Source of the DNA: Chloroflexota bacterium | GTDB taxonomy: Bacteria; Chloroflexota; UBA11872 | Assembly (NCBI GenBank): GCA_022824865.1 | Contig: JAJDZD010000072.1 | Span: forward strand, 70,848-134,847 | Direction: 5' to 3' | Length of the DNA stretch: 64,000 nt | Shown here: positions 17,510-64,000 of the stretch, one piece after another | Numbering within the stretch: the stretch's first letter is position 1 | Layout of the letters: every line of letters begins with the position of its first letter | The notes under the pieces: generated by a model | The model's database searches: none | What the model was told of the DNA's origin: nothing | Seen by the model: the letters and a program-made list of their open reading frames with translations, nothing else | Translations under genes and position numbers: made by a program

Positions 17510-17785
17510 CCAGAACCACGCCTAGCCTTTCCCCAACCGAGGCCCACGCTATTTCAAGCTGAACCTGCGAAGAGCCTGTCGAGGGGGATCCAACCGTTCG
17601 TGGTGAGCCGGAGCGCCGTCCCCTGCGCCCCGTGTCGAACCACAGCCTCCAGCATCCAAGCCACTCAGGCCATCCTCCCCCTCCTCATCTCAGTTCGCTC
17701 AGCTAGTCCCTCTCGCTCAGGCGCTAGCGCACTTTCCGTTCGCACTCGAAACTTGGGCAGCCCCGCACACATTCGAGGCACTCAC

Positions 17786-22535: not shown

Positions 22536-22593
22536 TCATTCCCGACCCACATGGCACCATCCAACCCAATCCACCCCTTCAACCACCTGACCC

Positions 22594-23628
22594 ATGCCCC
22601 CCGACTACGACTGGCAAGCCCTCCACCGCGACGCCCTCGTCATCGACTCCCACAACGACACCATCGTTGGCCTCATCCGTCGTGATGGGCAGAGCATGGC
22701 CGGGCCCGACGCCCCGTCCCGTGACACCCCCGAGAGCCTGATCGGCTACCTGCGCGGACCCGTCGACACCGCTGAAATCCCCATCCAGTCCGACCTCCCC
22801 GCCATGCGCGAAGGCGGCCTGGACTGCGGCTACTTTGCCGTTGACAACACCCGCGCCTGGGGCAACCACCTGGCCTACGTGCTGGATGGATTTGGTTGGT
22901 TTCACGCCGAAATCCAGGCCCATGCGGACCAGATCGCCCTGGCCTTCACCGCCGACGACATCCTGGCCGCCAAGGCCGCCGGCAAAGTCGCCGTCGTCCT
23001 CGCCATTGAGAACTCCGAAGCCCTCGAACGCAGCCTCTACGTCCTGCCCATGCTCTACCAGGTCGGCGTCCGCACCATGACCATCACCCACTCCATCCGC
23101 ACCTACGCCGGCGACGGCGAGCGCGCCCACCGTTCAGGCGGCGGCCTCACCGAATTCGGCCACGACCTCATCGCCTCAATGAACGACCTCGGCATGCTCG
23201 TCGACGTCTCCCACCTCAGCGTCCCCGCCTTCTGGCACGCCATGCGGGCTACCAACGCCCCCGTCATCGCCAGCCACAGCTCCTGCCGCGCCCTCAACGA
23301 ACACGGCCGCAACCTCCACGACGACCAGATGAAAGCCATTGCCGACGGCGGCGGCGTCATCGGTGTCAGTTGCGTCCACCACTTCGTCCACTGGACCAAC
23401 CCCACCCTCGAGCTCTACCTCGACCACGTCGAACACGCCGTCAACGTCGTCGGCATCGACCACGTCGGCTTCGGCTCCGACTTTGACGGCGGCTCATACC
23501 TCCTCGACGACGCCCGCCAGGTCCCCCAGATCACCCGGGGCCTCGCCGCCCGCGGCTGGACCGAACCCCACCTCCGCAAATTCCTCGGCCTCAACCACCT
23601 CCGTGTCTTCCGCGACGTCTGCGGCTGA
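22594..23628 (+). CDS. Membrane dipeptidase (peptidase family M19, renal dipeptidase-like)
   Basis: VIDSHNDT metal-binding start, VDVSHLS, HSSCRAL and GFGSDFDGG motifs typical of M19 dipeptidases. Confidence 0.85.
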   Translation: MPPDYDWQALHRDALVIDSHNDTIVGLIRRDGQSMAGPDAPSRDTPESLIGYLRGPVDTAEIPIQSDLPAMREGGLDCGYFAVDNTRAWGNHLAYVLDGFGWFHAEIQAHADQIALAFTADDILAAKAAGKVAVVLAIENSEALERSLYVLPMLYQVGVRTMTITHSIRTYAGDGERAHRSGGGLTEFGHDLIASMNDLGMLVDVSHLSVPAFWHAMRATNAPVIASHSSCRALNEHGRNLHDDQMKAIADGGGVIGVSCVHHFVHWTNPTLELYLDHVEHAVNVVGIDHVGFGSDFDGGSYLLDDARQVPQITRGLAARGWTEPHLRKFLGLNHLRVFRDVCG

Positions 23629-23783
23629 ACCGACTGCATGTGACGTTGCCGGCGCCGAGCGCTAAGGTTTCGGCTCGGCTGGTTGAGGCGCACATCCGCG
23701 GGCGGTCGGATAAGCGCAGTCACACGTACTCTGGCCGAGCGTCCCTTCTGACTGGGTAGAAGTCTCCCCGGAGGTTCGAGACC

Positions 23784-24572
23784 ATGCGTGTAATCCGTGC
23801 GCTCGTTATCGCGGCTCTGACCGCGATTCTGCTTTCAACACCTGCGCTGGCCCAATGGCCAACCACCTGCGTGTCCCTCAACGACATCGTTGAGAATCAC
23901 CTCGGGAACTACAACAACGTCGGCATCTACCAGCGCGTATTCGGTGATCAGGCCGAACAGGCGTGTCAAAACGACCATCGTGACGATGTTCGCGGTGTGT
24001 TTGCCTGGGCATTCCCCGAAGGCGTTGGACTCGTTGTCCCGGTGCCCGCGCCCGGCGCCACGTCGCCATCCATAACGCCTGCCGAGCTTGAAGCCAAGAT
24101 CGACGGGTTCTTGCACGCCAGCGCGGCGCATACCAACACCGGGAATGAGAGTGTCCAAGAGGCAAATGCGGAGATAATCAGCGCCACCGCGGCTATTCGA
24201 GCCGGCAATGTTGATACTGCGTCAACAGCGGTTTTGCGTGCCGGCGCACACTGGGCTGACGCTGATGACAGCCTCAGAAAGGCGGCTACCGAGATATCCG
24301 CGGCAGCCGCAACGGCGGCGACGGACGATTACGTGGAGACTTCCCGCCTCCTCTACTCGGTCTCGACTTCCCTCTTCGTCGCGGCCGGATTTGCGCGTCA
24401 GATCAGCGATATCAACCTGGAGGTTGCCGAGTTGCTTGCCGCCAGGGACTTCAATCGGGTTGGTCCGCTCCTGGCTGAGAGTCAGAGAATCTCCACGTCG
24501 CTGGCTGAACTCATGGCTGCCGGTGCCGATGAGCTTAGGGCTGCCGGCGTCGCGCTCTCTGAAGGCCGCTAG
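23784..24572 (+). CDS. Secreted hypothetical protein (Sec signal, 4-Cys N-domain, Ala-rich helical C-domain), paralog A
   Basis: Signal peptide MRVIRALVIAALTAILLSTPALA. About 90% identical paralog at 25263-26051. Confidence 0.6.
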   Translation: MRVIRALVIAALTAILLSTPALAQWPTTCVSLNDIVENHLGNYNNVGIYQRVFGDQAEQACQNDHRDDVRGVFAWAFPEGVGLVVPVPAPGATSPSITPAELEAKIDGFLHASAAHTNTGNESVQEANAEIISATAAIRAGNVDTASTAVLRAGAHWADADDSLRKAATEISAAAATAATDDYVETSRLLYSVSTSLFVAAGFARQISDINLEVAELLAARDFNRVGPLLAESQRISTSLAELMAAGADELRAAGVALSEGR

Positions 24573-24687
24573 TCTGTGACCTGCGCCAGGGGCATCCGCC
24601 CCTTGGCGCAGGTCCAACGACTTCAGCACCGCCAGCCTGCTCGCGAGCAGCGCTTGGCGCGCGGCTATCACTTCCGCGCGCCTGCCC

Positions 24688-24800
24688 TCAGTCCCGACTC
24701 ACCCGAATCGCAGCCCTCACGCCCAGCTCCGCCCACGCCCGCTCCGACGTCACCGCCGGCAACCCCTGCATTGCCGCCAGCGTCAAACACGCCCGGTCGC
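24688..24800 (-). pseudogene. Remnant of a VapC PIN-toxin C-terminus (truncated paralog of 26168-26554)
   Basis: Encodes ...GDRACLTLAAMQGLPAVTSERAWAELGVRAAIRVSRD, matching the C-terminal 37 aa of the two intact VapC paralogs. No N-terminal PIN half is present. Confidence 0.5.
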
Positions 24801-24837
24801 CAGGCGCGAGACCTCTGCGCCGATCGAACGCACCCCC

Positions 24838-25107
24838 ATGTCCTCCCCCATGCTCTACCGGGTCGGCGTCCGCACCACGACCATCACCCACGCAGTCCGC
24901 ACCAACGCCGGCGAATTCATCGCCCTCAACTGCGTCAACCACGTCGGCTTCGGCTCCGACTTTGACGGCGGCTCATACCTTCTCGACGACGCCCGCCAGG
25001 TCCCCAAGATCACCCGGGGCCTCGCCGCCCGCGGCTGGCCCGAACCCAACCTCCGCAAATTCCTCGGCCTCAACCACCTCCGCGTCTTCCGCGAAGTCTG
25101 CGGCTAG
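24838..25107 (+). pseudogene. Internally deleted fragment of the M19 dipeptidase gene
   Basis: Encodes MLYRVGVRTTTITHAVRT...HVGFGSDFDGGSYLLDDARQVPKITRGLAARGWPEPNLRKFLGLNHLRVFREVCG, a copy of dipeptidase segments 23050-23100 and 23450-23628 with the middle missing. Confidence 0.6.
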
Positions 25108-25262
25108 CCCGACTACAAGTGACCTAGCCAGCTTCAGACGCTAAGGTTTCGGCTCGGCTGGTTGAGGCGCACATCCGCGGGCGGTCGGATCAGCGCAGTC
25201 ACACGTGCTCTGGCCGAGCGTCCCCGCTGACTGGGCAGAAGTGTCCCGGGAGGTCCGTAACC

Positions 25263-26051
25263 ATGCGTGTAATCCGCGCCCTTTTCATCGCGGCTCTGAC
25301 CGCGATCTTGCTTTCGTCACCTGCGCTGGCCCAATGGCCAACCACCTGCGTGTCACTCAACGACATCGTTGAGAATCACCTCGGGAACCACAACAACGTC
25401 GGCATCTACCAGCGTGTGTTCGGCGATCAGGCCGAACAGGCGTGTCAGAACGACCACCGTGACGATGTTCGCGGTGTCTTTGCCTGGGCATTTCCCGAAG
25501 GCGGTGGACTCGTCGTGCCGGTGCCCGCGACCAGCGCCACGTCGCCATCCATAACGCCTGCCGAGCTTGAAGCAAAGATCGCCGGCTTCTTGCAGGCCGG
25601 CACCGCGCACTTGAATGACGCCAGCGCGAGCATCGGCATGGCCACCCAGGAGATCAACGCCGCCACGGCGGCTACCCAGGCCGGCGACATCAATGCGGCC
25701 ACAAGTGCCATCCGGCGCTCAAGCGCACACTGGGCTGACGTCGACAACAGTCTGAGAGCCTCGGCCATCGAGACGACGAAGGCCGCAGCCGCGGCGGCGG
25801 CGGACAACTTCCCGGAAACGTCCCGACTCCTCTACTCAACCTCAACCACCGTTTTCATCGCGGCCGGAAAAGCACGCCAAATCAGCGACAACAGCTTGGT
25901 AATAGCCGATGAGTTTGCGGACATCAACTCTGAACGGGTCGCTCCGCTCCTGGCCGAGAACCAGAGCCTGTCAATGTCGCTGGCTGACCTCATGGCGGCC
26001 GGCGCCGATGAGAGTCTTCAAGTCGCAGCCGCTCTGGCGGCTGGCCGCTAG
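25263..26051 (+). CDS. Secreted hypothetical protein, paralog B
   Basis: Same signal peptide and domain layout as 23784-24572. The upstream 150 bp is also duplicated. Confidence 0.6.
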   Translation: MRVIRALFIAALTAILLSSPALAQWPTTCVSLNDIVENHLGNHNNVGIYQRVFGDQAEQACQNDHRDDVRGVFAWAFPEGGGLVVPVPATSATSPSITPAELEAKIAGFLQAGTAHLNDASASIGMATQEINAATAATQAGDINAATSAIRRSSAHWADVDNSLRASAIETTKAAAAAAADNFPETSRLLYSTSTTVFIAAGKARQISDNSLVIADEFADINSERVAPLLAENQSLSMSLADLMAAGADESLQVAAALAAGR

Positions 26052-30836: not shown

Positions 30837-30973
30837 AGTCGGGTCTGAGACCCGCCTCGATCGTCCGCCGCCCAACTCCGTTCGTGGTGAGCCGGCCCGT
30901 AGTCTTCGAAGGGCCGTGTCGAACCACCGGCACGGAGCCTGACCCTGGCCAAAGAGCCCCCTCAAACCACCCG

Positions 30974-31189: not shown

Positions 31190-31493
31190 TTCGCTGAGCT
31201 AGTCCCCCAACCCTACGCCCCGGCCCTGCGTCTCTCACCCTCCCCGCCCCATTCGTAAGGAGCCCGTCCACGGTGCCAGCCCCCGTTCGTGGTGAGCCGG
31301 TCCGGAGTCTTCGGCGGACCGTGTCGAACCACATCCGTAAGCACCCAACCGCGTATTCTTCCAACCACAACAACCCTCCAGAACTTTTCCCATCCACTTC
31401 CCCTTCGCCGAATTCATCGGTGCCCCTTACGACCTCGGCCTCCAGCACGGCCAGCGTTTCCGCGACCTCGTCCGCCTCCAGCTCGCCGAGACC

Positions 31494-32603: not shown

Positions 32604-32829
32604 TCTCTGACCCGCCCGTCTTCCTCCACCCTTCTCCGCACTCCCTCTTTGCTCTCACCGCCCACTCCTCTCAGCTCACTCCTTCCTCACCCCCCGTTCG
32701 TGATGATCCTGTCCTGAGCCTGCCGAAGTGGCCGGCCCGGAGTCCTCGGAATGCCGTGTCGAACCATCCCTGTCATTCCGACGGTCCCCCGAGGAATCTC
32801 GACTTTTCCCCTCCCCCTCCTCCTCTTTC

Positions 32830-36127: not shown

Positions 36128-36418
36128 CACGTCAAGTCAGAACCCCGCCCTGATTCCGTCTGTCGTAGGGGCGGGTCCTCGACCCGCCCGTCTTCCGCGC
36201 AACCACCAGCCCCTACCCATTCGTGGTGAGCCGGTCCGCTGCCGTGTGGCCCAGGCTGCGCCCAACCTGGGACCCTCCGCCGGGGACCACACCCCCGCAC
36301 TACCCAACCCACCCCGCCAATCCCCCTCCGTCATCCCGGCGTCCCCAGAGAGCCTGCCCTGAGCTTGCCGAAGAGCCTGCCCTGAGCCTGTCGAAGGGGG
36401 ATCCAGTCTTCCTCCCCT

Positions 36419-37876: not shown

Positions 37877-37997
37877 CACCCCTACTCCTTCCCCATCCAA
37901 CCCTCGCCAATCCCCCACCACAAACCCTATACCCCCATCCGTTCGTGGTGAGCCCTGTCGAACCACCCGGCCCCTATCTTCGTAGGGGCGGGTCTCT

Positions 37998-39667
37998 GAG
38001 CCTGTTTCATAAAGTGGGTGGTGTTGCGTGACGGCGCCGCCGGCCAGCGGGCCGGCGTGGGTGGAGGTGAGGGGGTATGCCGCATCGACCGATGAGCCGC
38101 GAGCAGCAATGGCTGCTGCCTCCGAGCCTGGACGAGCTGGTGCCGGCCGATCATCCGGCCCGCTTCGTGGCCGAGTTCGTCGATGCCCTCGACGGCGGCG
38201 CCTGGGCTGCCATGGGCATCGACCTCGCCGGGGATCCCCTGGGCGCGCCGGCCTACCACCCGCGGGCGCTGCTGAGTGTCTGGGTGTACGGCTTCATGAC
38301 CGGGGTCCGGTCGAGTCGGAAGTTGGAGGCGGCCTGCCGGGAGCAACTGCCGTACCTGTGGCTGACGGGGTGCCAGACGCCGGATCACATCACCTTGTGG
38401 CGGTTCTACGCCGTCCATCGAGCCGGGATGCGGCAGCTGTTCACGCGCACGGTCCGGATGGCGCTGCGGCTGCAGCTGGTGGCGTTGGCGGTGCAGGCCG
38501 TGGACGGCACCAAAGTCGACGCCAACGCCAGCGGGGCCCGGACCTACGATTCGGCGGGGCTGCGCCGGCTGCTGGACCGGGTGGAGGGCGCGATCGACGA
38601 CCTGGAAGCGCAGCACGAAGCGGGCGACGAGCCGCGGCCAGCCCGGCTGCCGGCGGCCTTGGCCACCCGGCGGCGGTTACGCACGCAGGTGCGGACGGCC
38701 CTCGCGACGCTGGACCAGCCCACGTCGCCCACGCGGATCAATCTGACCGATGCGGACGCGCCGCTGATGAAGACGCGGCAGGGGGTGCGGCCGGCCTACA
38801 ACGCCCAGGCGATGGTCGCGCCGGTGGCCCGGGGGGCCGCGGGCGGCGGCCGCCTGATCACCGCGGTCGCGGTGGTGGATGACCCGGCCGATGCGGCGCA
38901 GTTGCCGCCCATGCTGGCGCAGGCCGAGGCCGCGACCGGTACGCCAGCGGACCTGACGGTGGCCGATGCGGGCTATCACTCGGGGGCGGCGCTGGCGGCC
39001 TGTGCGCGCCGCGGCCACCGCGTGGCCATGCCGGAGGCGCAGGCGCGGGCCCTGCAGCAGCCGTATCACAAGGACCGCTTCAGCTACGAGGCGGCGCGCG
39101 ACCGCTATCGCTGTCCGGCCGGGCAGTGGCTGCGCTTCACGCGCACGAAGACCACGCAGGGCACCGCCATGCGGCTCTACCGGGCCTCCGGGGCCGTCTG
39201 CCGGGCCTGTCCGGCCTTCGGAATCTGTACGACCGACGGGCGGCATGGACGCGGCTTGGAAATCGGGCCGCACGACGCCCTGCTACGGCGGCATCGGGCC
39301 TGGATGGCCACGCGCGCGGCCCAGCACTGGGTAGCGCAGCGCCCGGCCCTCGTCGAACCCGTCTTCGGCATCATCAAAGACCAGCAAGGGGCTCGCCGCT
39401 TCCTGCTGCGCGGGCTGGCCAATGTCAAGGCCGAGTGGGCCCTGCTCGCCACCGCCTTCAACCTGCGCACGCTCTGGCGGCTCTGGCGGGCGCCACCCAC
39501 CGAACCCGCCGGGTGGGATGCGGCGATGACCACCGCTGGCGCGCCCGCCTAGCCCCCGGTGACGCCTCAGCGCGTCGGCGCAGCCTCGTCACATCGCCGG
39601 AAGCCACCCGTCCAGGCCGCACGATGGCGTGAGCCTGCCCCCTGAATACGCCTAATGAAACAGGCTC
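37998..39667 (+). mobile_element. IS element (1670 bp), IS5/IS1182-family, with 13-bp terminal inverted repeats and 4-bp CTCT target-site duplication
   Basis: TIR GAGCCTGTTTCAT at 37998-38010 and its reverse complement ATGAAACAGGCTC at 39655-39667. CTCT at 37994-37997 and 39668-39671. Removing the element plus one CTCT regenerates the REP hairpin GGGCGGGTCTCTGACCCGCCC. Confidence 0.7.
38077..39552 (+). CDS. DDE transposase, IS5/IS1182 family (DUF772-type N-terminus)
   Basis: 491 aa. N-terminal LPPSLDELVPADHPARFV and WLTGCQTPDHITLWRF. DDE region with DAGYHS. C-terminal LLRGLANVKAEWALLATAFNLRTL is typical of this family. Confidence 0.8.
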   Translation: MPHRPMSREQQWLLPPSLDELVPADHPARFVAEFVDALDGGAWAAMGIDLAGDPLGAPAYHPRALLSVWVYGFMTGVRSSRKLEAACREQLPYLWLTGCQTPDHITLWRFYAVHRAGMRQLFTRTVRMALRLQLVALAVQAVDGTKVDANASGARTYDSAGLRRLLDRVEGAIDDLEAQHEAGDEPRPARLPAALATRRRLRTQVRTALATLDQPTSPTRINLTDADAPLMKTRQGVRPAYNAQAMVAPVARGAAGGGRLITAVAVVDDPADAAQLPPMLAQAEAATGTPADLTVADAGYHSGAALAACARRGHRVAMPEAQARALQQPYHKDRFSYEAARDRYRCPAGQWLRFTRTKTTQGTAMRLYRASGAVCRACPAFGICTTDGRHGRGLEIGPHDALLRRHRAWMATRAAQHWVAQRPALVEPVFGIIKDQQGARRFLLRGLANVKAEWALLATAFNLRTLWRLWRAPPTEPAGWDAAMTTAGAPA

Positions 39668-40761: not shown

Positions 40762-40987
40762 TCGTCCCCCTCTTGCGTAGGTGCCGCGTTTCCAACCGGC
40801 CTCTTCCGCGCAACCACGCCCGAAGTACGCAGAGGTCTCCCGTTACGACACCGTCCCTGCCCCCGCAGTCCTCTTCTCCCCTCCGCCTCTTTTCTCAACG
40901 CTCACTACTCTCAGCTCACTCCTTCCTCCGGCGTCCATCCTCAACCCGCCCCAAGTAAGCTAGCCCGACCCCCACGCCACCTCTCGC

Positions 40988-43936
40988 ATGCCCCGCACCG
41001 CCGAACACACCGTCAACGTCGAACTCGCCCGCCTCCTGCGCACTAGGCACCCGCGTTGGCGCAACGGCATCGGCGTTGAACAGACCGGCGTGCTGGCCGA
41101 CGCCCCCGCCCAGCGCCCCGACATCCTCATCCAGCATCCCGGCGGCCTGCCCGTCGTCATCGAGACCGAGTACCGCCCGGCTCGCGAAGTTGAACAGGAC
41201 GCCAGCAGCCGCCTCGGCGCGGTCGTCGCGGCCACCGGCGAAGCAATAGAGCAAGCCGTCGCCCTCCGCGTGCCCGTGGAACTCCGCGGCGTCAACCAGG
41301 CCCAACTGCCCCAACGCGTCGCCGAGGCCGCCTTCGACTACTGCGTCTTCACCGAGGGTGCCGAAGGCCCCGACCGCTGGCCCGCCAGCGGCTGGCTTAC
41401 CGGCGGCGTCGACGACCTCGCCGGCTTCATTGAACACACCGCCCTATCGGAGCGCCGCATCGCCCGCGGGACCTTAATTCTTGAAGTCGGCGTTCGTCAG
41501 GCCGCGGGTCGTCTTGAGGCCATGCTGCTAGAACCGGAAGGGATATTGGGCCGACGAGCGGCCGTCCTGCACCAGCAGCCCGGAGAGCAAACCGAGCGCA
41601 TGGCCATGGCGATCGTGGCCAACGCCATGACCTTTCACGCCACGCTCGTCGCAGCCAAGCTTGATGTCCGCTCGTTCGACGATCTGCGCCGGGATTCCTC
41701 GCTCAACCGTCTGAGCCGATCCATAGTCCTCGGGGAATGGCGCCGAATCCTCAGGGAGATCAACTACTGGCCGATCTTCCGGATTGCCGATGAGCTCATG
41801 TCGCCGGTCTCGGCCCGCGAAGCCTCGTCAATCCTCGAGCACTTGGCCAAAGTCGCCGACGAGCTGCACCAAATCGGCACGTCCACCACCCACGACCTCT
41901 CCGGCCAGATGTTCGGCCGTCTGATTACGGACCGGAAGTTCCTGGCCACCTTCTACACGCTTCCTGCCTCCGCCTCGCTACTGGCCGAACTGGCGGCGAC
42001 TCGTCTCGAAGTCGATTGGGCGGATTCCGTAGCTTTCACCGACCTGCGGATTGCCGATCTGGCCTGCGGCACCGGTGCCCTGCTGGCCTCGGCTTACCGC
42101 GCGGTGGCGTCCCGCCATCGCCGCGCCGGCGGCGACGATGCTCCGCTCCACGCAACCATGATGGAGCACTCACTCATCGGTGCCGACATCATGCCGGCCG
42201 CCTCCCACCTCACCGCCTCCACGCTCTCCAGCGCGCATCCCGGTGTGCCGTTTGATCGTACCCGCATACACACCATGCCCTACGGCGACCCAGAGCCTGA
42301 CGATCCCAGCGGGCGCGGTACCGCCATCGGCTCCCTGGATCTGATCCTCAGCGACGCCCAGCCGTCCCTCTTCGGTACCGGCCAGCACGCCGTCCGGGGC
42401 CGCGACCCGTCCCTAAGCGCCGAATCCTCGCCGGCGCATGTGCGGCAGGGCGACGAACTTCATGTGCCCCAGGGCTCGGTTGATCTCATGATCATGAATC
42501 CACCGTTCACCAGCCCGACAAATCACGCAGCGCAAAATAATGTCCCGATACCTTCGTTTGCTGGATTCGCCACCGGCGAGGACGAACAGCGAAGGATGTC
42601 GGAGGTACTCCGAGAGATTCGGAGGTGCCTGGAGCATCCTGTAGGTCACGGCAACGCCGGCCTCGCTTCCAACTTCATTGACCTCGCACACGCGAAGACA
42701 AAGCCGGGCGGGGTGCTCGCCCTTGTCTTGCCGCTGGCGGTGGTCTCAGGAAGCGCATGGTCATCGGCGCGGCGGATGCTGGCCCGCGACTACAGCGATC
42801 TGATAATCGTCACGATCGCGGCCGTCGGTGACACTGATCGTGCGTTCTCGTCGGACACCAGCATCGGCGAGGCGCTCGTTGTCGCAACACGGCGGGATGG
42901 CCCGGTCCACACAGACGAATCTGCGGCCGAAACGCTCTATGTGAGTCTCGGCAGGCGACCGCAGAGTCTGGCTGAGGCATCAGAGATCGCCCGCGCGGCT
43001 CGTTGTCTGCCAGATTCAGGTGGCGGGCTCTTTCAAATCGGTGACGAGACAGTCGGCTGTTTCATCCGCGCCACACTTGCTGACAGCGGATGCGCTGCGG
43101 TGCGTGAGCCGGGTGTCGCACAAGCTGCGCTTGCGGTGAGAGAGGGCTCGTTGCGCCTGCCTCGTATGCGCGAGGCGCACTCTTTGCCAATAGCTCTGCT
43201 GGCTGAACTTGGCCACCGCGGGCTGGTTCACCGCGACATCAACGGTAGAAACTCTGACGGTTCTCCCCGTGGCCCCTTCGATGTCATGCCGCGACTCGGC
43301 GCGGCGTCGGCGTACCCAATGCTCTGGCAACACGGCGCTAAACGTGAGCGGCGGCTCCGCGTAGAACCGGATACGGAGGGCCGCGTTCGGCAAGACTGTG
43401 AAACCAAAGCCATTGACGTATGGGAAACAGCAACTCGGCTCCATTTGACCCTGGACTTCCGCCTCAACTCGCAAAGCTTGGCCGTCTGCCTCACCCCCGA
43501 ACCTTCGATCGGAGGCCGAGCCTGGCCTAACTTTCGGCTATTGAACGCCGCAGGCGAAGAGGCGGTCGCGCTCTGGGCGAACAGCACCTTGGGACTGATG
43601 AGCTTTTGGTTGACTGGCGGGCGCCAGCAGCAGGGTCGCTCGATCATGACCATTTCTCAGTTGCCCGAACTGCCAACACTCGACGTACGCCAACTCAGCA
43701 TGGAACAGATCGAGCGATCCCACCGCATCTTCGCCGACTTCCTCGACTATGAATTCCTCCCCGCCAACGAGGCCTACCACGACCCTGTCCGCCAGGCACT
43801 CGACCAGGCCGTCCTCATCGACCTCCTCGGCCTCCCCGAATCCATCCTCGATCCCCTCGCCCTCCTCCGCCTTCAATGGTGCGCCGAACCCACCGTCCAC
43901 GGCGGCAAATCCACTAAGCCCCCTGAGCTACCGTAG
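40988..43936 (+). CDS. Large N6-adenine DNA methyltransferase fused to an HSDR_N-like nuclease-fold N-terminal domain (Type IIG/IIL-like single-chain restriction-modification candidate, 982 aa)
   Basis: N-terminal RPDILIQHPGGLPVVIETEY resembles the HSDR_N PD-(D/E)xK-fold domain, but the Lys is replaced. Motif I LRIADLACGTGALL. Motif IV VDLMIMNPPFTSPT (NPPF). I-then-IV order indicates gamma class. About 450 aa of C-terminal domain could be a target-recognition domain. Confidence 0.65.
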   Translation: MPRTAEHTVNVELARLLRTRHPRWRNGIGVEQTGVLADAPAQRPDILIQHPGGLPVVIETEYRPAREVEQDASSRLGAVVAATGEAIEQAVALRVPVELRGVNQAQLPQRVAEAAFDYCVFTEGAEGPDRWPASGWLTGGVDDLAGFIEHTALSERRIARGTLILEVGVRQAAGRLEAMLLEPEGILGRRAAVLHQQPGEQTERMAMAIVANAMTFHATLVAAKLDVRSFDDLRRDSSLNRLSRSIVLGEWRRILREINYWPIFRIADELMSPVSAREASSILEHLAKVADELHQIGTSTTHDLSGQMFGRLITDRKFLATFYTLPASASLLAELAATRLEVDWADSVAFTDLRIADLACGTGALLASAYRAVASRHRRAGGDDAPLHATMMEHSLIGADIMPAASHLTASTLSSAHPGVPFDRTRIHTMPYGDPEPDDPSGRGTAIGSLDLILSDAQPSLFGTGQHAVRGRDPSLSAESSPAHVRQGDELHVPQGSVDLMIMNPPFTSPTNHAAQNNVPIPSFAGFATGEDEQRRMSEVLREIRRCLEHPVGHGNAGLASNFIDLAHAKTKPGGVLALVLPLAVVSGSAWSSARRMLARDYSDLIIVTIAAVGDTDRAFSSDTSIGEALVVATRRDGPVHTDESAAETLYVSLGRRPQSLAEASEIARAARCLPDSGGGLFQIGDETVGCFIRATLADSGCAAVREPGVAQAALAVREGSLRLPRMREAHSLPIALLAELGHRGLVHRDINGRNSDGSPRGPFDVMPRLGAASAYPMLWQHGAKRERRLRVEPDTEGRVRQDCETKAIDVWETATRLHLTLDFRLNSQSLAVCLTPEPSIGGRAWPNFRLLNAAGEEAVALWANSTLGLMSFWLTGGRQQQGRSIMTISQLPELPTLDVRQLSMEQIERSHRIFADFLDYEFLPANEAYHDPVRQALDQAVLIDLLGLPESILDPLALLRLQWCAEPTVHGGKSTKPPELP

Positions 43937-44084
43937 ATTTTTCCGTCGCGCACTCAATTCCAGCAACGAAACGGAAGAGAACGATGGTGATCACTTGACA
44001 CCAGGCACGAATCCTAGCGACTCATCTATTTCGATACAGGACCTTCATGAAGATGAACTAGAGCATGTAATCAGAGTTTTTTCA

Positions 44085-45029
44085 ATGCGTATCGGATTGG
44101 ATCGGATCATCAAGAGCGCATCCGTCTCAAAGATTGTTCCAATAGACGATTTACTCGAAGCACTATCGTTGGATGAATGGCCAGCTGAAAGCGCAACACT
44201 TGACGAGCTTATATGGTGCTCGGAGCCACTCACACATGAGGACTTCAAGCGCTTACGTGAATATTCTGTGCACTGGCAGAAGACTAGTCAAGACTGGCGA
44301 CTTTGGATAGCTCGTGAGCCTTCGTTGCCGGCAGACGATAGAATGTTCTTTGACAAGCGTCGAATAATGATTAGTATATTCACCGTATATCGGATCTATA
44401 TAGATGCAGCGCATCAGAAACAATATCGATCCGCCCTGAGGCTTTGGCACCTAAAGAGATTGGCACCCACGATCCTTTTTACTGTAATTGTTCTAATTGT
44501 TATAGCCCTCAACAGCTGGCAGGCATCCGAGACGCTTACGCTGGATTTCTGGAAGACTATTCTGTTTCAGTACGTGGCATTTGGCGCGGTAATCTACACT
44601 TCACACTACATGACAGGAAAGCTCGGCTTTATCCACGGAGTGCTAACACTAACTGTCGTTTGGTTGTTCCCTTTCCACTTTTTCTTATTTGGAACGATTG
44701 AGGCTCTTGCAATCGACGTGCCACAATGGCAAACCGAACTGATGTCTTTAGGACTTAGCGTGCTAGTTGGGTTATTGATGGCGGAATTAAGGCACCCTTT
44801 AAAGAGCGTCAGTCAAATGCATTCAGAAGGCGGATGGGCGATAGTTTACAAAAATGTGTTGGCGACTCCGGCACTCGTGATGGCGCCGACCTACGGAGCC
44901 ATTAAGATAGTTGAATACTTGATCAGGGTATCGGTTCACAACAATCAGTTGGCAATTGTAGCAGTTCCTATCGGACTAATTGTCATCGTGGCGAGTGCGG
45001 AATTGATACGACGTGAGCTAAGTCGTTAG
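44085..45029 (+). CDS. Hypothetical membrane protein (N-terminal soluble domain plus 5 TM helices) encoded in an AT-rich insert
   Basis: First in-frame ATG after the upstream stop is 44085. GC content of 43937-45330 drops to roughly 45-48% against about 67% background. Five hydrophobic helices in the C-terminal 200 aa. Confidence 0.5.
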   Translation: MRIGLDRIIKSASVSKIVPIDDLLEALSLDEWPAESATLDELIWCSEPLTHEDFKRLREYSVHWQKTSQDWRLWIAREPSLPADDRMFFDKRRIMISIFTVYRIYIDAAHQKQYRSALRLWHLKRLAPTILFTVIVLIVIALNSWQASETLTLDFWKTILFQYVAFGAVIYTSHYMTGKLGFIHGVLTLTVVWLFPFHFFLFGTIEALAIDVPQWQTELMSLGLSVLVGLLMAELRHPLKSVSQMHSEGGWAIVYKNVLATPALVMAPTYGAIKIVEYLIRVSVHNNQLAIVAVPIGLIVIVASAELIRRELSR

Positions 45030-47299: not shown

Positions 47300-47400
47300 G
47301 CCACCCGCACCTCACCCCCAGCCCCCGACCCCATCCCATCCCTTTCCCTTCCCTTCCCCTCCCCCTCTCACTCCTCTGCCCTCTCCCCTCTACCCTTCTT
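47300..47400. repeat. Pyrimidine-rich direct repeat, copy A (about 100 bp)
   Basis: CCACCCGCACCTCACCCCCAGCCCCCGACCCCATCCCATCCCTTTCCCTTCCCTTCCCCTCCCCCTCTCACTCCTCTGCCCTCTCCCCTCT. Repeats at 47583-47685 with more than 90% identity. Confidence 0.7.
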
Positions 47401-47582
47401 CAAGTCCCCCACGTGCCACCGCCACCCTTGCCGGGACTGCCGGCACTCGCAGCACGGCCTGCACTGACTGCGTTGCCAGCAACGCTGGCAGCCCCCTGGT
47501 CGGCGACAGTCCGCCCACCACCCACCCGAAGGCCTTGCGGCCGGCGGGGTCCAAGTCTTCCCAAGCCCGCCAAACCTTCAAC

Positions 47583-47685
47583 CGCACGCGCACCTCGCCC
47601 CCAGCCCCCGACCCCATCCCATCCCTTTCCCTTCCCTTCCCATCCCCCTCTCACTTCTCTCCCCTCTCCCCTCTCCCCTTCCTCC
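47583..47685. repeat. Pyrimidine-rich direct repeat, copy B
   Basis: Second copy 283 bp downstream of copy A. The top strand is more than 90% C/T. Confidence 0.7.
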
Positions 47686-55738: not shown

Positions 55739-55842
55739 TGCGGCGTGGGCGCTCTGGCGTTCGCTCAGGGCAGTCGTCAGGTCGCGGGCCCCCGACGCGT
55801 CGAACCGCCGGGGCGCGGACGTGCACGCGTAGCACGCCCACG

Positions 55843-55986
55843 GCGCCTTCTCCCTTCCGGACTGTACCGTCGGCTCCGGATTCGCACCGGATCAGCCGGC
55901 GAACGCCGGCTCGCGGGCTTGGCCTCGGGCCTCACCGCCGGTCGGGAATTTCCAGGCGCGAGCGCCGGGATCACCCTGCCCCGAAG
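55843..55986 (-). ncRNA. FMN riboswitch (RFN element) leader of the rib operon
   Basis: Minus-strand sequence reads GGGGCAGGGTGA..GGAAATTCCCGACCGGCGGTGAGG...GGTGCGAATCCGGAGCCGACGGTACAGTCCGGAAGGGAGAAGG. It contains the conserved RFN cores GGGCAGGGTGAAATTCCCGACCGGCGGT and GATTC.GAGCCGACGGTA.AGTCCGGA.GGGAGAAGG. Located about 105 nt upstream of the ribD start. Confidence 0.75.
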
Positions 55987-56090
55987 GCACGTATGTGCGT
56001 GGGTCAAGCATACGCCCGTGCATCGCGGCGTCCAATCGCCGCCGTATGCTCCGACAACGAACATACGACTGTCGGCCGGAGCGAGGCGTG

Positions 56091-60435: not shown

Positions 60436-61737
60436 TCACTTCGGGGCTGTCATCCCGGCCAGCATCGCGTCGGTGATGAATCGGCCCAGCCCGAACATCT
60501 TGCGGTCCGAATACCAGAGGGTGCGCTCGCCGTTGTGCTCAGTGAGGCTGGCGTACATGGAAAGCCACGGGCGGTAAAAGGGCGGTACGCCAACGCCGTT
60601 GGTGTCGAACAGAAACTTCGGGTCACTGAACCATATGGGCTGGTGAGCCCCGGGACGAAATTCGCCCACCGATATGAACTGCGGCCGTCTGGCGTTGGTG
60701 TTGTCGGTTGGACCGGCAGCGCCATGACTCCAGCCATCGTGGTTCTGGAGGAATTGCAGGTAGCGGCCATCCCGCAGGCGGTAGAGCGGCGTTGGGGACA
60801 CCGGGTTTTCCATCGGCGCTCCTCCGTCCTTGAAGCGCAGCATCTCGGTGGGCCGCCAGGAGTGGCCGTGGTCGTCGGACACCGTGTACCAGATCTGTCC
60901 GTTGCGGGTGCGCATGACCGTAAACAGGCGGTCGTCCGGTAGCAGCGCCACCGCTGGCTCCTGGCAGAACGACAAGTCCGGCGGCGCGTCCGGATCGGTT
61001 GTGATGGGGACTGAAATGAGCTCTTCGCTGTCCGGAAGCCAGGTAATCCGCACCTCGTGCGGCTCGGGTCCCTCGTCGATATTGTCGAAGCGCATGAACT
61101 GGCAGCGGCACTCGCTGTTGAAGATCTTGGCCGCGCCGTCCGGCTTACGGACGACGAGCGGTCGTGCGGCCGCGGCGGATGACCACTCGGTGTATCCCAC
61201 CAGCACGCGGTCGCGCGCGTCCCGGATCGGCTTCTGCCACACCAGGGCATTGGTGCCCACGCTCGGGTCGGGGTGGCTCAGGATGGTTCGTCGGTACGGA
61301 ATGCCGACGTTGCCGGGCGTCCAGGTTCGGCCATCGTCATCGGAGTAGCTGCAGCGCATGAAGCTGGTTGTGTAGTCGGTCCCGACGGCCGTCGCCTTGT
61401 TGTAGAAGACGTAGATGCGGCCCGCGCGGCTGATCACCGGAAACCCGAAGCAGGCCACCTGGCCGTACTTTGGGCCCGGCGGATCAAACTCGCCAGGCTC
61501 GGACCAGGTGCGGCCGCCGTCTTCGCTGCGCGCATGGAGCACGGTCTGGTCCGAGGCGTCGGCCTTAGCGCCGTATGTCCAAACGGCCAGTAGATCTCCC
61601 TCCGGGGTCACATCTACCAGGACGTGATCAACCGCCTCGACAAACTGCGGCGGTTGCCTGGGCAGGAAGAGAACCAGATCAGGGTTGGTGCGGCGCCAGT
61701 CGTCGCTGAAGCACTCAAAGTCGCCGGCGACTGGCAT
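60436..61737 (-). CDS. BNR/Asp-box repeat protein (sialidase/exo-alpha-sialidase-like beta-propeller glycosidase)
   Basis: Three Asp-box motifs: SEDGGRTWS, SDDDGRTWT, SDDHGHSWR. Confidence 0.65.
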   Translation of the reverse strand: MPVAGDFECFSDDWRRTNPDLVLFLPRQPPQFVEAVDHVLVDVTPEGDLLAVWTYGAKADASDQTVLHARSEDGGRTWSEPGEFDPPGPKYGQVACFGFPVISRAGRIYVFYNKATAVGTDYTTSFMRCSYSDDDGRTWTPGNVGIPYRRTILSHPDPSVGTNALVWQKPIRDARDRVLVGYTEWSSAAAARPLVVRKPDGAAKIFNSECRCQFMRFDNIDEGPEPHEVRITWLPDSEELISVPITTDPDAPPDLSFCQEPAVALLPDDRLFTVMRTRNGQIWYTVSDDHGHSWRPTEMLRFKDGGAPMENPVSPTPLYRLRDGRYLQFLQNHDGWSHGAAGPTDNTNARRPQFISVGEFRPGAHQPIWFSDPKFLFDTNGVGVPPFYRPWLSMYASLTEHNGERTLWYSDRKMFGLGRFITDAMLAGMTAPK

Positions 61738-62083
61738 CGGACGCCCCCGCTTGCCATTACCGCGGACGCGCCGCCCGGGCAGCGGCAGCCTAGATCGTCG
61801 TCCGCCCCCGAGCGAACCGCTCGGGCTGAATGCGGCAGGTAGTACATACGGAGACGTAAGCGACCAGGGAGCTCGCCGCGACTCCCACCTGTCTCAGCCC
61901 GCGTCGTGCGTTGGCCTGGGCTCGATCGCCCAGCGAAATTGAGCGCCTCCGGCACCGCTCAGCCATCAGGACGCGCCCAAACCTGATGAGTGAACAATCG
62001 ATGCTCTTGACAATGAGTGCTAAGGCAACTACTATGACTCTTGTTGGGTTGATAGCGAAGGGCAAAGGGGCCCGAGGCGCGTA

Positions 62084-62554
62084 GTGGCGGAAGAGCAGAA
62101 GGAGCCGACTAGGCCGATAGGTCTTGTGGCCAGCACTGTCGTTGCAGCCCACGCCAAGTTGGCGGGTGACGTGCTGGCACCCTTCAAGATCGTGCCGGTC
62201 CAGTGGGCCATCCTTGAGCAGTGTGTCCCCGCTCAGGGCACCACGGCCACGTTGCTGGCGCGAGTCATTCCAATCGACTCCGCCTCCATCAGCCGCAACG
62301 TAGAGCGGCTGGTACGGCTCGGCCTGCTGCAACGGCAACGGCTTGAGCGCGACCGGCGCATCGTACGTTTGACTCTCACGGACGACGGCCGAGCCATCCT
62401 CCCGGAAATCATGAAGCGGATGAAGGTCGTCGACGCTACGCTCTTGGACGGGGTGACGGAGCAAGAGCTTGACGGTTTTCTTCGGACTGTGCGCAAGGTC
62501 GCGGCCAACGTGGCGCGCTCCGCCGAGCTAGCCGATCCCGGCGGCCCCGGCTAA
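62084..62554 (+). CDS. MarR-family transcriptional regulator
   Basis: Winged-helix MarR pattern (QWAILEQC..., ISRNVERLVRLGLLQRQRLERDRRIVRLTLTDDG). Confidence 0.75.
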   Translation: MAEEQKEPTRPIGLVASTVVAAHAKLAGDVLAPFKIVPVQWAILEQCVPAQGTTATLLARVIPIDSASISRNVERLVRLGLLQRQRLERDRRIVRLTLTDDGRAILPEIMKRMKVVDATLLDGVTEQELDGFLRTVRKVAANVARSAELADPGGPG

Positions 62555-62698
62555 GCCAGGCCGAGCGTCCTGAGACGCTTTGGCTGGTGATCCCGCTCTT
62601 GTCCAGAGTCCTTTGCACGTCAAGGAACAGGGGCTGGAGCGTGTCTTACGCCGCATGGCAGCGCTTCCCGCCCCTCGCCCGTTGAGGGACTCCCCGGG

Positions 62699-62793
62699 CG
62701 GAGGTGCATGGGAGTCGAACCCACCTGGAACGCTCACCAGCGCCCCACAACGGTTTTGAAGACCGCGAGGACCACCCGGCCCCGTCCACCTCC
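62699..62793 (-). tRNA. selC: Candidate selenocysteine tRNA (tRNA-Sec, anticodon UCA), 95 nt
   Basis: Minus-strand sequence is GGAGGTGGACGGGGCCGGGTGGTCCTCGCGGTCTTCAAAACCGTTGTGGGGCGCTGGTGAGCGTTCCAGGTGGGTTCGACTCCCATGCACCTCCG. Acceptor is 8 nt (one G.G mismatch at pair 8). 6-bp D-stem with 4-nt loop. Anticodon loop CTTCAAA is identical to E. coli selC. Long variable arm. T-loop TTCGACT is identical to E. coli selC. Discriminator is G. Confidence 0.55.
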
Positions 62794-63119
62794 ACGTCCA
62801 CGCTAGCAGGTTTGGAGGGGAAATCCGGGACGCCAGCGACCGCGCCCGACCGTTCGCGTGAGCGGGAAGATCATGCGGCATGCACGCTGCTCAGCCGGGC
62901 GCCACCGCGGGTGATCCTCATGCTCGCGAACGGCATCAACGGGCTGTGAACCCAGATATGAGGGCAGAGACGTGGATTGTTGCGCTGGGTTGGTCCGACC
63001 TTGCGACTGTGCCCGAGCCCAGACGCAGTTTGTCGCCTGACAGTTTGTCGACGAATTGCCGTCGCGGTAGACTAATTCGGGTCGGGATCTTTGTACGATG
63101 AATTGACCGGGAGGTCGCT

Positions 63120-64000
63120 ATGTCCCCAACGATGACGCGTCGCCGAATGCTTGCCGGGGCCGCGGGTACGGTTGGCGCCACCGTATTGGCGGCCTGTGGC
63201 GAGACCCAGGTCGTAGAGGTGGAGAAGATCGTTACCCAGGAGGTGATCAAGGAAGTCCCGGTCGAGAAGATTGTGACGCAGACGCAGATCAAGGAAGTTG
63301 CAGTCGAGAAGATTGTGACGCAGACGCAAATCAAGGAAGTCCAGGTGGACCGGGTCGTAACCCAGGTCGTCGAGAAGGTCGTTGAGGCGCCGCCAGCGGC
63401 CCGCACGGTGAAGTTCAATTTTGAGACGGACCATACGGCCGGTCCTCGAGGCAAGTCGACGCAGTGGGCGATTGATCGCTACAACCAGATCAAGCCGAAC
63501 ACGATCGTCAAGTTCATTGCGCAGCCGGATCAATTCACTGAAAAAATCAATATTCAGGCGGTCGCCGGCACTCTTTCCGAGATCAGTCTGCTGAGCGACC
63601 GGGTATTCCAGCAGTGGGTTGACGCCGGAACGTGGCTGCAGATCAACGATCTTCTAGCCAAGAACCCTGACTTCACGCCCGCGGAGTACCACTTCTCAGG
63701 CGAGGTGTATACGGACAACAAGGAGCTGCCCGGCCCGCTGCCCTACGACGACACGATGCGCGGACCGCAATACGGCATGCCCTACCAGGGCGCTGGAATC
63801 GCGGCCTTCATCTACAACGTCGATCTCCTGAATGCCGCCGGCGTTCCGGAGCCCACGGATGGCTGGTCGTACGACGACATGCTTGAGGGCGCCATGAAGG
63901 TCCGTGATCAGGAGACAGGGGTCTGGGGACTCAACTCCGGCATCCTTGGCATGCAGCACCAGTGTTGGGGCTTTAACGGGCTCCAGAAATACATCCTGGG
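63120..64000 (+). CDS. ABC transporter extracellular solute-binding lipoprotein (sugar-type), 3-prime partial at window end
   Basis: GGGAGG RBS. Tat-lipoprotein signal MSPTMTRRRMLAGAAGTVGATVLAACGETQVVE. Three tandem 13-aa linker repeats (VEKIVTQTQIKEV). SBP family-1-like body. The ORF runs off the window end. Confidence 0.75.
   Translation, partial: MSPTMTRRRMLAGAAGTVGATVLAACGETQVVEVEKIVTQEVIKEVPVEKIVTQTQIKEVAVEKIVTQTQIKEVQVDRVVTQVVEKVVEAPPAARTVKFNFETDHTAGPRGKSTQWAIDRYNQIKPNTIVKFIAQPDQFTEKINIQAVAGTLSEISLLSDRVFQQWVDAGTWLQINDLLAKNPDFTPAEYHFSGEVYTDNKELPGPLPYDDTMRGPQYGMPYQGAGIAAFIYNVDLLNAAGVPEPTDGWSYDDMLEGAMKVRDQETGVWGLNSGILGMQHQCWGFNGLQKYIL

Follow-up and report, generated by a model that had tools for sequence, protein, structure and literature searches.

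The minus strand of the window (the whole stretch of 64,000 nucleotides analysed here) carries a functional, single-gene selC of an uncultured Chloroflexota bacterium, whose tRNA-Sec has a G.G apposition at the innermost acceptor position as a normal variant, and which does not serve as the attachment site of an island; the probability of this reading is put at about 0.9. The gene is an ordinary addition to the well-known tRNA-Sec family, and its identity, structure, conservation and synteny are directly observed. The only tRNA that ARAGORN detects in the 64 kb of the window is a tRNA-SeC with the anticodon tca at position 35 (62697..62793, minus strand), and RF01852, the Rfam tRNA-Sec model, is matched over its full length (62700..62793, minus strand) with 71.2 bits and an E value of 1.4e-12, that is 24 bits above the gathering score of 47 bits; the only other Rfam match in the window is one FMN riboswitch. 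The earlier note had proposed here a candidate tRNA-Sec with a UCA anticodon, to be checked with tRNA predictors; this check has been run and ARAGORN accepts the gene as tRNA-SeC, so that the proposal is upheld by the predictor, by the covariance model (71.2 versus 47 bits) and by the near-invariance of the sequence in 16 related species (see below). The span then given for the tRNA (62699..62793) is also right, since it ends at the discriminator base: nucleotides 1-95 of the mature molecule correspond to 62793..62699 on the minus strand, and the gene proper extends to 62697 because it includes an encoded CC (62698..62697). The following base is C and the terminal A of the CCA end is not encoded, so that a CCA-adding enzyme is required.

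The RNAfold z-score of the tRNA (-1.78) is unremarkable by itself; it is the covariance-model score, together with conservation, that makes it more than a chance fold. Aligned with selC of E. coli K-12 (L018:723-817), the window tRNA is identical at 57 of 97 positions, and the two loops of seven nucleotides for which identity with E. coli selC had been claimed, the anticodon loop and the T loop, have indeed the same sequence in both genes. A blastn search of the tRNA against E. coli genomes gives no match, the query being too short and too diverged.

The architecture of the molecule, with all its arms on the minus strand, can be followed from the 5' end. The acceptor stem pairs the 5' strand GGAGGUGG (62786..62793) with the 3' strand GCACCUCC (62700..62707) through seven Watson-Crick pairs, to which is added, at the junction with the T arm, G8 (62786) facing G87 (62707). 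A linker of 2 nt leads to the D arm (62768..62783), which has a 6-bp stem, GGGGCC/GGUCCU, containing two G.U pairs, and a 4-nt loop, GGGU; in the anticodon arm a 5-bp stem carries the 7-nt loop CUUCAAA (62755..62761), within which the anticodon UCA (tRNA nucleotides 35-37) occupies 62757..62759. The variable arm (62726..62747) is 22 nt long, with a 9-bp stem and the 4-nt loop GGUG, and the T arm (62708..62724) has a 5-bp stem, GUGGG/CCCAU, which opens with a G.U pair like that of E. coli, and the loop UUCGACU. The acceptor/T branch has therefore 8 + 5 = 13 positions, with 12 standard pairs and G.G at the eighth acceptor position; the discriminator is G73 (62699), followed by CC and then C, and G73 is the identity base of SerRS (PMC5389517, PMC13449736). 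Read from the sequence in this way, the 8-nt acceptor, the 6-bp D stem with its 4-nt loop and the long variable arm are all present as the earlier note had described them. The Rfam model draws a 9/4 pairing, in which an A9-U pair replaces the G.U first pair of the T stem; this is equally possible on paper, applies to the E. coli molecule too and leaves the conclusion unaffected. The 17 near-identical sequences available from this lineage supply no covariation, and support for the fold comes from the Rfam model and from more distant metagenomic relatives.

Among the known forms of the molecule, the window tRNA is closest in description to the bacterial 8/5 type (E. coli, Aquifex aeolicus; RF01852), with which it shares the UCA anticodon, the 8 + 5 branch, G73, the 6-bp D stem with a 4-nt loop, a long variable arm as well as the G.U first pair of the T stem; it differs in the innermost acceptor pair, which is G.G here and C-G there, in encoding only the CC of CCA and in being unlinked to selAB, while its variable arm is 3 nt longer than that of E. 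coli selC in the alignment. Two minor forms with a 12-bp branch have been described, namely an 8/4 form with a bulged A51a in Actinobacteria and Chloroflexi, and a 7/5 form of the Cloacimonetes type (PMC5389517, PMC5330540). The overall tRNA-Sec architecture is common to these forms and to the window tRNA, and Chloroflexi are among the 8/4 groups; however, the T stem of the window tRNA is free of a bulge and is separated from G73 by 8 nucleotides instead of 7, and for these reasons the molecule is to be described as the standard 13-position form with one non-Watson-Crick pair.

The conservation of the gene was assessed in 16 GTDB species-representative MAGs of Chloroflexota (or Chloroflexi), which were taken as relatives because they contain the exact 51-nt 5' half of the tRNA; the names of several of them look like those of sponge-microbiome bins. 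All 16 are called as tRNA-SeC and by RF01852. Closed chromosomes on which the identical tRNA is found are OY764080.1, OZ240251.1, OZ244802.1, OZ253587.1 and OZ242271.1. In the alignment of the 17 sequences the mean pairwise identity is 99.7% over the tRNA, compared with 59.6% over the 140 nt upstream and 53.1% downstream, the neighbouring genes being 81-95% identical among relatives (blastn); the sole variable site of the tRNA is nucleotide 65, in the variable arm, where U or C is found and a G.U pair becomes G-C. Such a difference between the tRNA (99.7%) and its flanks (53-60%) indicates that strong purifying selection acts on selC and that the gene is no relic, as judged from these alignments.

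The neighbourhood of the gene is conserved as well. The order is an ABC solute-binding protein (plus strand), selC (minus), a MarR-family gene (plus), a BNR_2 gene (minus), an ABM monooxygenase, a TPP enzyme, PhyH, CoaE and an FMN riboswitch with ribD-ribE-ribBA, and all 16 related loci are collinear with the window over whatever part of this order each covers (blastn). The divergent neighbour of selC, on the plus strand, is an ABC-transporter solute-binding lipoprotein (63120..64000, Pfam SBP_bac_1/SBP_bac_8) cut by the window end; the complete protein has 528 aa in L017, an 11,961-bp contig which encodes an identical MarR protein and which supplied 5.4 kb of sequence beyond the window end. 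Between its signal/lipobox (…LAACGE) and the SBP_bac_1 domain, this lipoprotein contains imperfect repeats of ~14 aa (VEKIVTQTQIKEV…; 63180-63400, plus strand). On the other side, the MarR-family gene (62084..62554, plus strand; Pfam MarR/MarR_2) is convergent with selC and is followed by the gene of a BNR_2 (sialidase-like) protein (60436..61737, minus strand), assigned by Pfam and synteny; the presence of a MarR regulator and of a BNR protein beside the tRNA, as noticed earlier, is thus confirmed by Pfam. The FMN riboswitch (55841-55992, minus strand; RF00050, 96.4 bits) lies upstream of ribD-ribE-ribBA, and it is found at the same distance from selC in L004, L005, L014 and L016, four of the related genomes.

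The selC gene is a classic site of island insertion in enterobacteria, and the earlier note had considered it a possible integration hotspot, flanked by a MarR and a BNR gene of differing context; on this explanation, the 3' end of selC would be an active integration site and the MarR gene (and the BNR gene) the cargo of a small integrated element. The only variation seen at the tRNA could be taken in this sense: a segment of 0.84 kb containing the MarR gene (61859..62695) is present in 12 of the 17 genomes and absent from L003, L014, L004, L010 and L016, its right-hand breakpoint abuts exactly the 3' end of the tRNA, and L014 and L003, the closest relatives of the window by the BNR gene, are without it. 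Against integration, no integrase or recombinase (Phage_integrase) is matched by Pfam among the scanned ORFs of the window and of the extension contig, and a search for att-like repeats that reached 62.7 kb downstream of the tRNA did not find its 3' end repeated in the window, whether as a 25-mer with as many as 3 mismatches or as a 16-mer with as many as 2. The exact breakpoint is also expected from selection against damage to the tRNA. The BNR gene is in place in every related genome whose locus reaches that far, and the MarR region of the window is 81-85% identical to that of the other MarR-bearing genomes, a value similar to that of the flanking genes; since the divergence of MarR and BNR from their orthologues is about equal to that of the surrounding genes, both appear to be vertically inherited. 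A neighbour-joining tree built from the BNR gene separates the genomes without MarR into two groups, L003 with L014 and L004 with L010 and L016, and places the MarR-bearing window as sister to the first; the simplest reading of these sequences would be vertical descent with two independent deletions of the segment, whereas its gain without an integrase is less likely, nothing in the data pointing that way. The likeness to the selC islands of Enterobacteriaceae (LEE, SHI-2 and others) is thus limited to a presence/absence polymorphism which starts exactly at the selC 3' end, whereas what varies here is one 0.84-kb regulator gene, without integrase or att repeats, and probably lost rather than gained. 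Given synteny in 16 relatives, and with neither an integrase in the ORFs scanned nor a repeated tRNA 3' end, the hotspot proposal is not supported and active integration is regarded as improbable: in this genome, no island uses selC as its attachment site. As a separate observation, the MarR-less L003 (4547-4590) and L014 have a 22-nt perfect palindrome, GAATGTTTCACGTGAAACATTC, 3' of the tRNA, and a diverged version of this palindrome sequence is found in the window at ~61860-61895, at the far end of the MarR segment.

The G.G at the acceptor/T junction had been noticed earlier and reported as a mismatch; it is really there, the position being non-Watson-Crick in more than half of the relatives surveyed. 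The survey drew on a scan of metagenomes for tRNA-Sec genes with the same anticodon arm, which returned 120 loci (L019-L138), 114 of them called tRNA-SeC by ARAGORN, and the set used for the pair itself consisted of the 87 unique sequences in which the T stem and seven acceptor pairs are clean. Of these 87, 40 have a standard eighth acceptor pair and 47 a non-standard one, the non-standard combinations being G.A (12), U.C (12), G.G (8), A.A (5), C.U (4), C.A (3), A.C (2) and A.G (1). With E. coli SelA, SelB and SelD (from L139 and L140) as tblastn queries, SelA was detected beside the tRNA in 21, SelB in 27 and SelD in 23 of the 120 loci; 15 loci with a non-standard eighth pair carry selA, selB or selD, and in one of them, L101, a tRNA of the G.G type lies between selD and selA-selB. 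Because the position is non-Watson-Crick in 47 of 87 sequences, including tRNAs within sel clusters, G.G is an ordinary state of the innermost acceptor pair, a normal variant and no defect; it follows for annotation that a mismatch at this pair is no ground for rejecting candidates for bacterial tRNA-Sec.

These results bear also on the possibility that the gene is an orphan or decaying tRNA-Sec, that is a pseudogene or att remnant left without function after loss of the Sec trait. Such a relic could be suspected from the acceptor-stem mismatch, from the incomplete CCA end and from the lack of Sec machinery and of selenoprotein genes within the window. The mismatch, however, occupies a position that is non-Watson-Crick in about half of bona fide tRNA-Sec, some of them within sel clusters; moreover, a neutral relic would have diverged like its flanks, which are only 53-60% identical, whereas in 17 genomes the 97 nt of the gene have accepted a single, structure-preserving substitution. 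Decay is accordingly a very improbable explanation. Least probable of all is that the gene is a tRNA-Sec look-alike, either a selC* tRNA-Cys(UCA) recoding UGA as cysteine or an allo-tRNA, given that the selC* family is defined by a U73 discriminator, the identity base of CysRS (PMC5389517), and the window tRNA has G73, that the groups from which selC* is reported are Firmicutes, Thermodesulfobacteria, Nitrospirae and Proteobacteria and do not include Chloroflexi, that no selB*/cysS* gene pair adjoins the tRNA in the 16 loci, that allo-tRNAs have a 12-bp acceptor branch (8/4 or 9/3) as opposed to the 13 positions (8 nt and a 5-bp T stem) seen here, and that the RF01852 score lies as far over its threshold as stated above.

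The absence of selA, selB and selD from the window, already remarked in the earlier note, was confirmed by Pfam scans, which detected no SelA, SelB or SelD domain in ~60 ORFs of the window and of the 5.4 kb beyond its end. Two scans of the same stretch, the window and the 5.4 kb after it, for TGA-interrupted ORFs, one requiring long flanks and the other allowing short N-terminal parts and CxxU-type contexts, yielded no selenoprotein candidate; the matches that they returned were dismissed as antisense or out-of-frame artefacts, or as TGA codons that precede the real start. Chloroflexota rich in selenoproteins (Dehalococcoidia) have been recorded (BSepDB, PMC13326102), and this precedent within the phylum, together with the conservation of the tRNA, makes it probable that the present lineage uses selenocysteine. 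If the pathway runs as in other bacteria, the 95-nt tRNA-Sec would be charged with serine by SerRS, the seryl form would be converted to Sec-tRNA(Sec) by SelA at the expense of selenophosphate provided by SelD, and SelB would deliver Sec-tRNA(Sec) to those in-frame UGA codons that precede a SECIS hairpin. The selC gene itself stands alone, unlinked to selA, selB and selD, between the ABC solute-binding-protein gene and the MarR/BNR cluster. A practical implication concerns the annotation of the lineage, in which in-frame UGA codons of oxidoreductase genes should not be turned into stops or pseudogenes.

Upstream of the tRNA, a block of 13 nt, ACCTGCTAGCGTG (positions -18 to -6; 62799..62811, minus strand), is invariant in 17 of 17 sequences and represents a putative selC promoter. 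It contains an extended -10-like element, TGcTAGCGT (TGnTAnnnT), with TG at 62807..62808 and the hexamer TAGCGT at 62800..62805, the hexamer ending 6 nt before the +1 of the tRNA; the 4 nt adjoining the tRNA and the remaining flank vary. Scans around selC for a strict sigma-70 promoter consensus and for terminators returned no site. In the metagenomic collection, TAnnnT is placed 6 or 7 nt from +1 in 27 of 85 tRNA-Sec loci (10 and 17, respectively), against a background of ~1.7 per offset over the other 43 offsets, a background computed upstream of tRNA-Sec genes only; the matches at 6-7 nt come from 17 of 59 tRNA sequence clusters, and many of them make good -10 boxes, for instance TAGAAT, TACAAT and TATACT. 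In one locus, L112, the same CCAACCTGCTAGCGT block is found 29 nt upstream, a placement which suggests that it may behave as a movable promoter. Judging from these sequence patterns, selC probably has its own extended -10 promoter directly upstream, and because the hexamer ends 6 nt before +1, transcription is predicted to start at or beside the mature 5' G.

It is conceivable, although we hold it only as a tentative proposal and would sooner bet against it, that in this lineage and in about one third of the sampled metagenomic selC genes a -10 box at 6-7 nt would direct the synthesis of a leaderless transcript, whose 5'-triphosphate G1 would already be the mature end. Eukaryotic tRNA-Sec genes are transcribed from +1, without a 5' leader. 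The predicted start of the window gene, derived from the position of the -10-like box, likewise coincides with the mature 5' end, whereas the promoter is of a different kind, a putative extended -10 of the sigma-70 type here and a Pol III type 3 upstream promoter in eukaryotes. In E. coli, on the other hand, selC is transcribed from -25 and its 25-nt leader is removed by RNase P (PMC12439589), whereas the putative promoter of the window gene abuts the mature 5' end. If the proposal were true, a tRNA-Sec made without a leader would have no need of the unusual RNase P cleavage by which an 8-bp acceptor stem is otherwise produced, and the bacterial gene, being leaderless, would depart from the textbook E. 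coli case and parallel the eukaryotic tRNA-Sec gene.

Apart from selC, the window contains a region of ~33 kb (17000-50000) in which the plus strand has a GC skew of -0.15 to -0.41 per kb, both flanks being at ~0. When third codon positions are taken alone, the skew amounts to -0.53 to -0.77 in plus-strand genes and +0.19 to +0.47 in minus-strand genes, and because its sign switches between the strands, the bias follows the DNA strand and not the direction of transcription. This block, which contains three PIN genes, antitoxin genes of the FitA-like, MazE and BrnA types and three sulfatases, and which also includes a low-GC patch and duplicated segments, looks like DNA of a different replication or mutation history; no integrase is found in it by Pfam, and no contigs encoding the GlnA of the window, in which alternative contexts of the block might be seen, are on record. 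Within the block lies a DDE transposase gene (DDE_Tnp_1_6, DUF772; 38071-39549) that shows no GC skew and has a GC content of 0.72. It overlaps a sulfatase ORF of the opposite strand at the 5' end of that ORF, and is probably a later IS insertion. Two plus-strand ORFs, 40964-43933 (~980 aa) and 43749-45029 (426 aa), have no Pfam match, the latter being located in the low-GC patch (GC 0.46 at 44-45 kb).

Several kinds of repeats accompany the block. The gene of an M19 membrane dipeptidase (22591..23625) is followed by a partial duplicate (region 22591-26048), with repeats spaced 1479 nt apart (23453-23752 versus 24932-25231, 92%) and an ORF for a C-terminal fragment (24580..25104) in a frame that differs from that of the preceding ORF, an arrangement that suggests a tandem duplication in which one copy is frameshifted. 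An intergenic element, CCGTTCGTGGTGAGCC...GTGTCGAACCAC, is repeated inside the block at 17588-17659, 30872-30943, 31277-31348, 32688-32766, 36210-36244 and 37932-37954; it has conserved outer arms, GTGGTGA / TC..ACCAC, around a variable GC-rich hairpin, and differs from integron attC sites in its polarity, which is opposite (GTTCG first, CGAAC last). Finally, two C/T-rich direct repeats of 100 nt (47302-47401 and 47585-47684) are 93% identical and lie 283 nt apart, and C/T-rich segments of 62 nt are dispersed in the block at 32635, 39855, 40875 and 49095.
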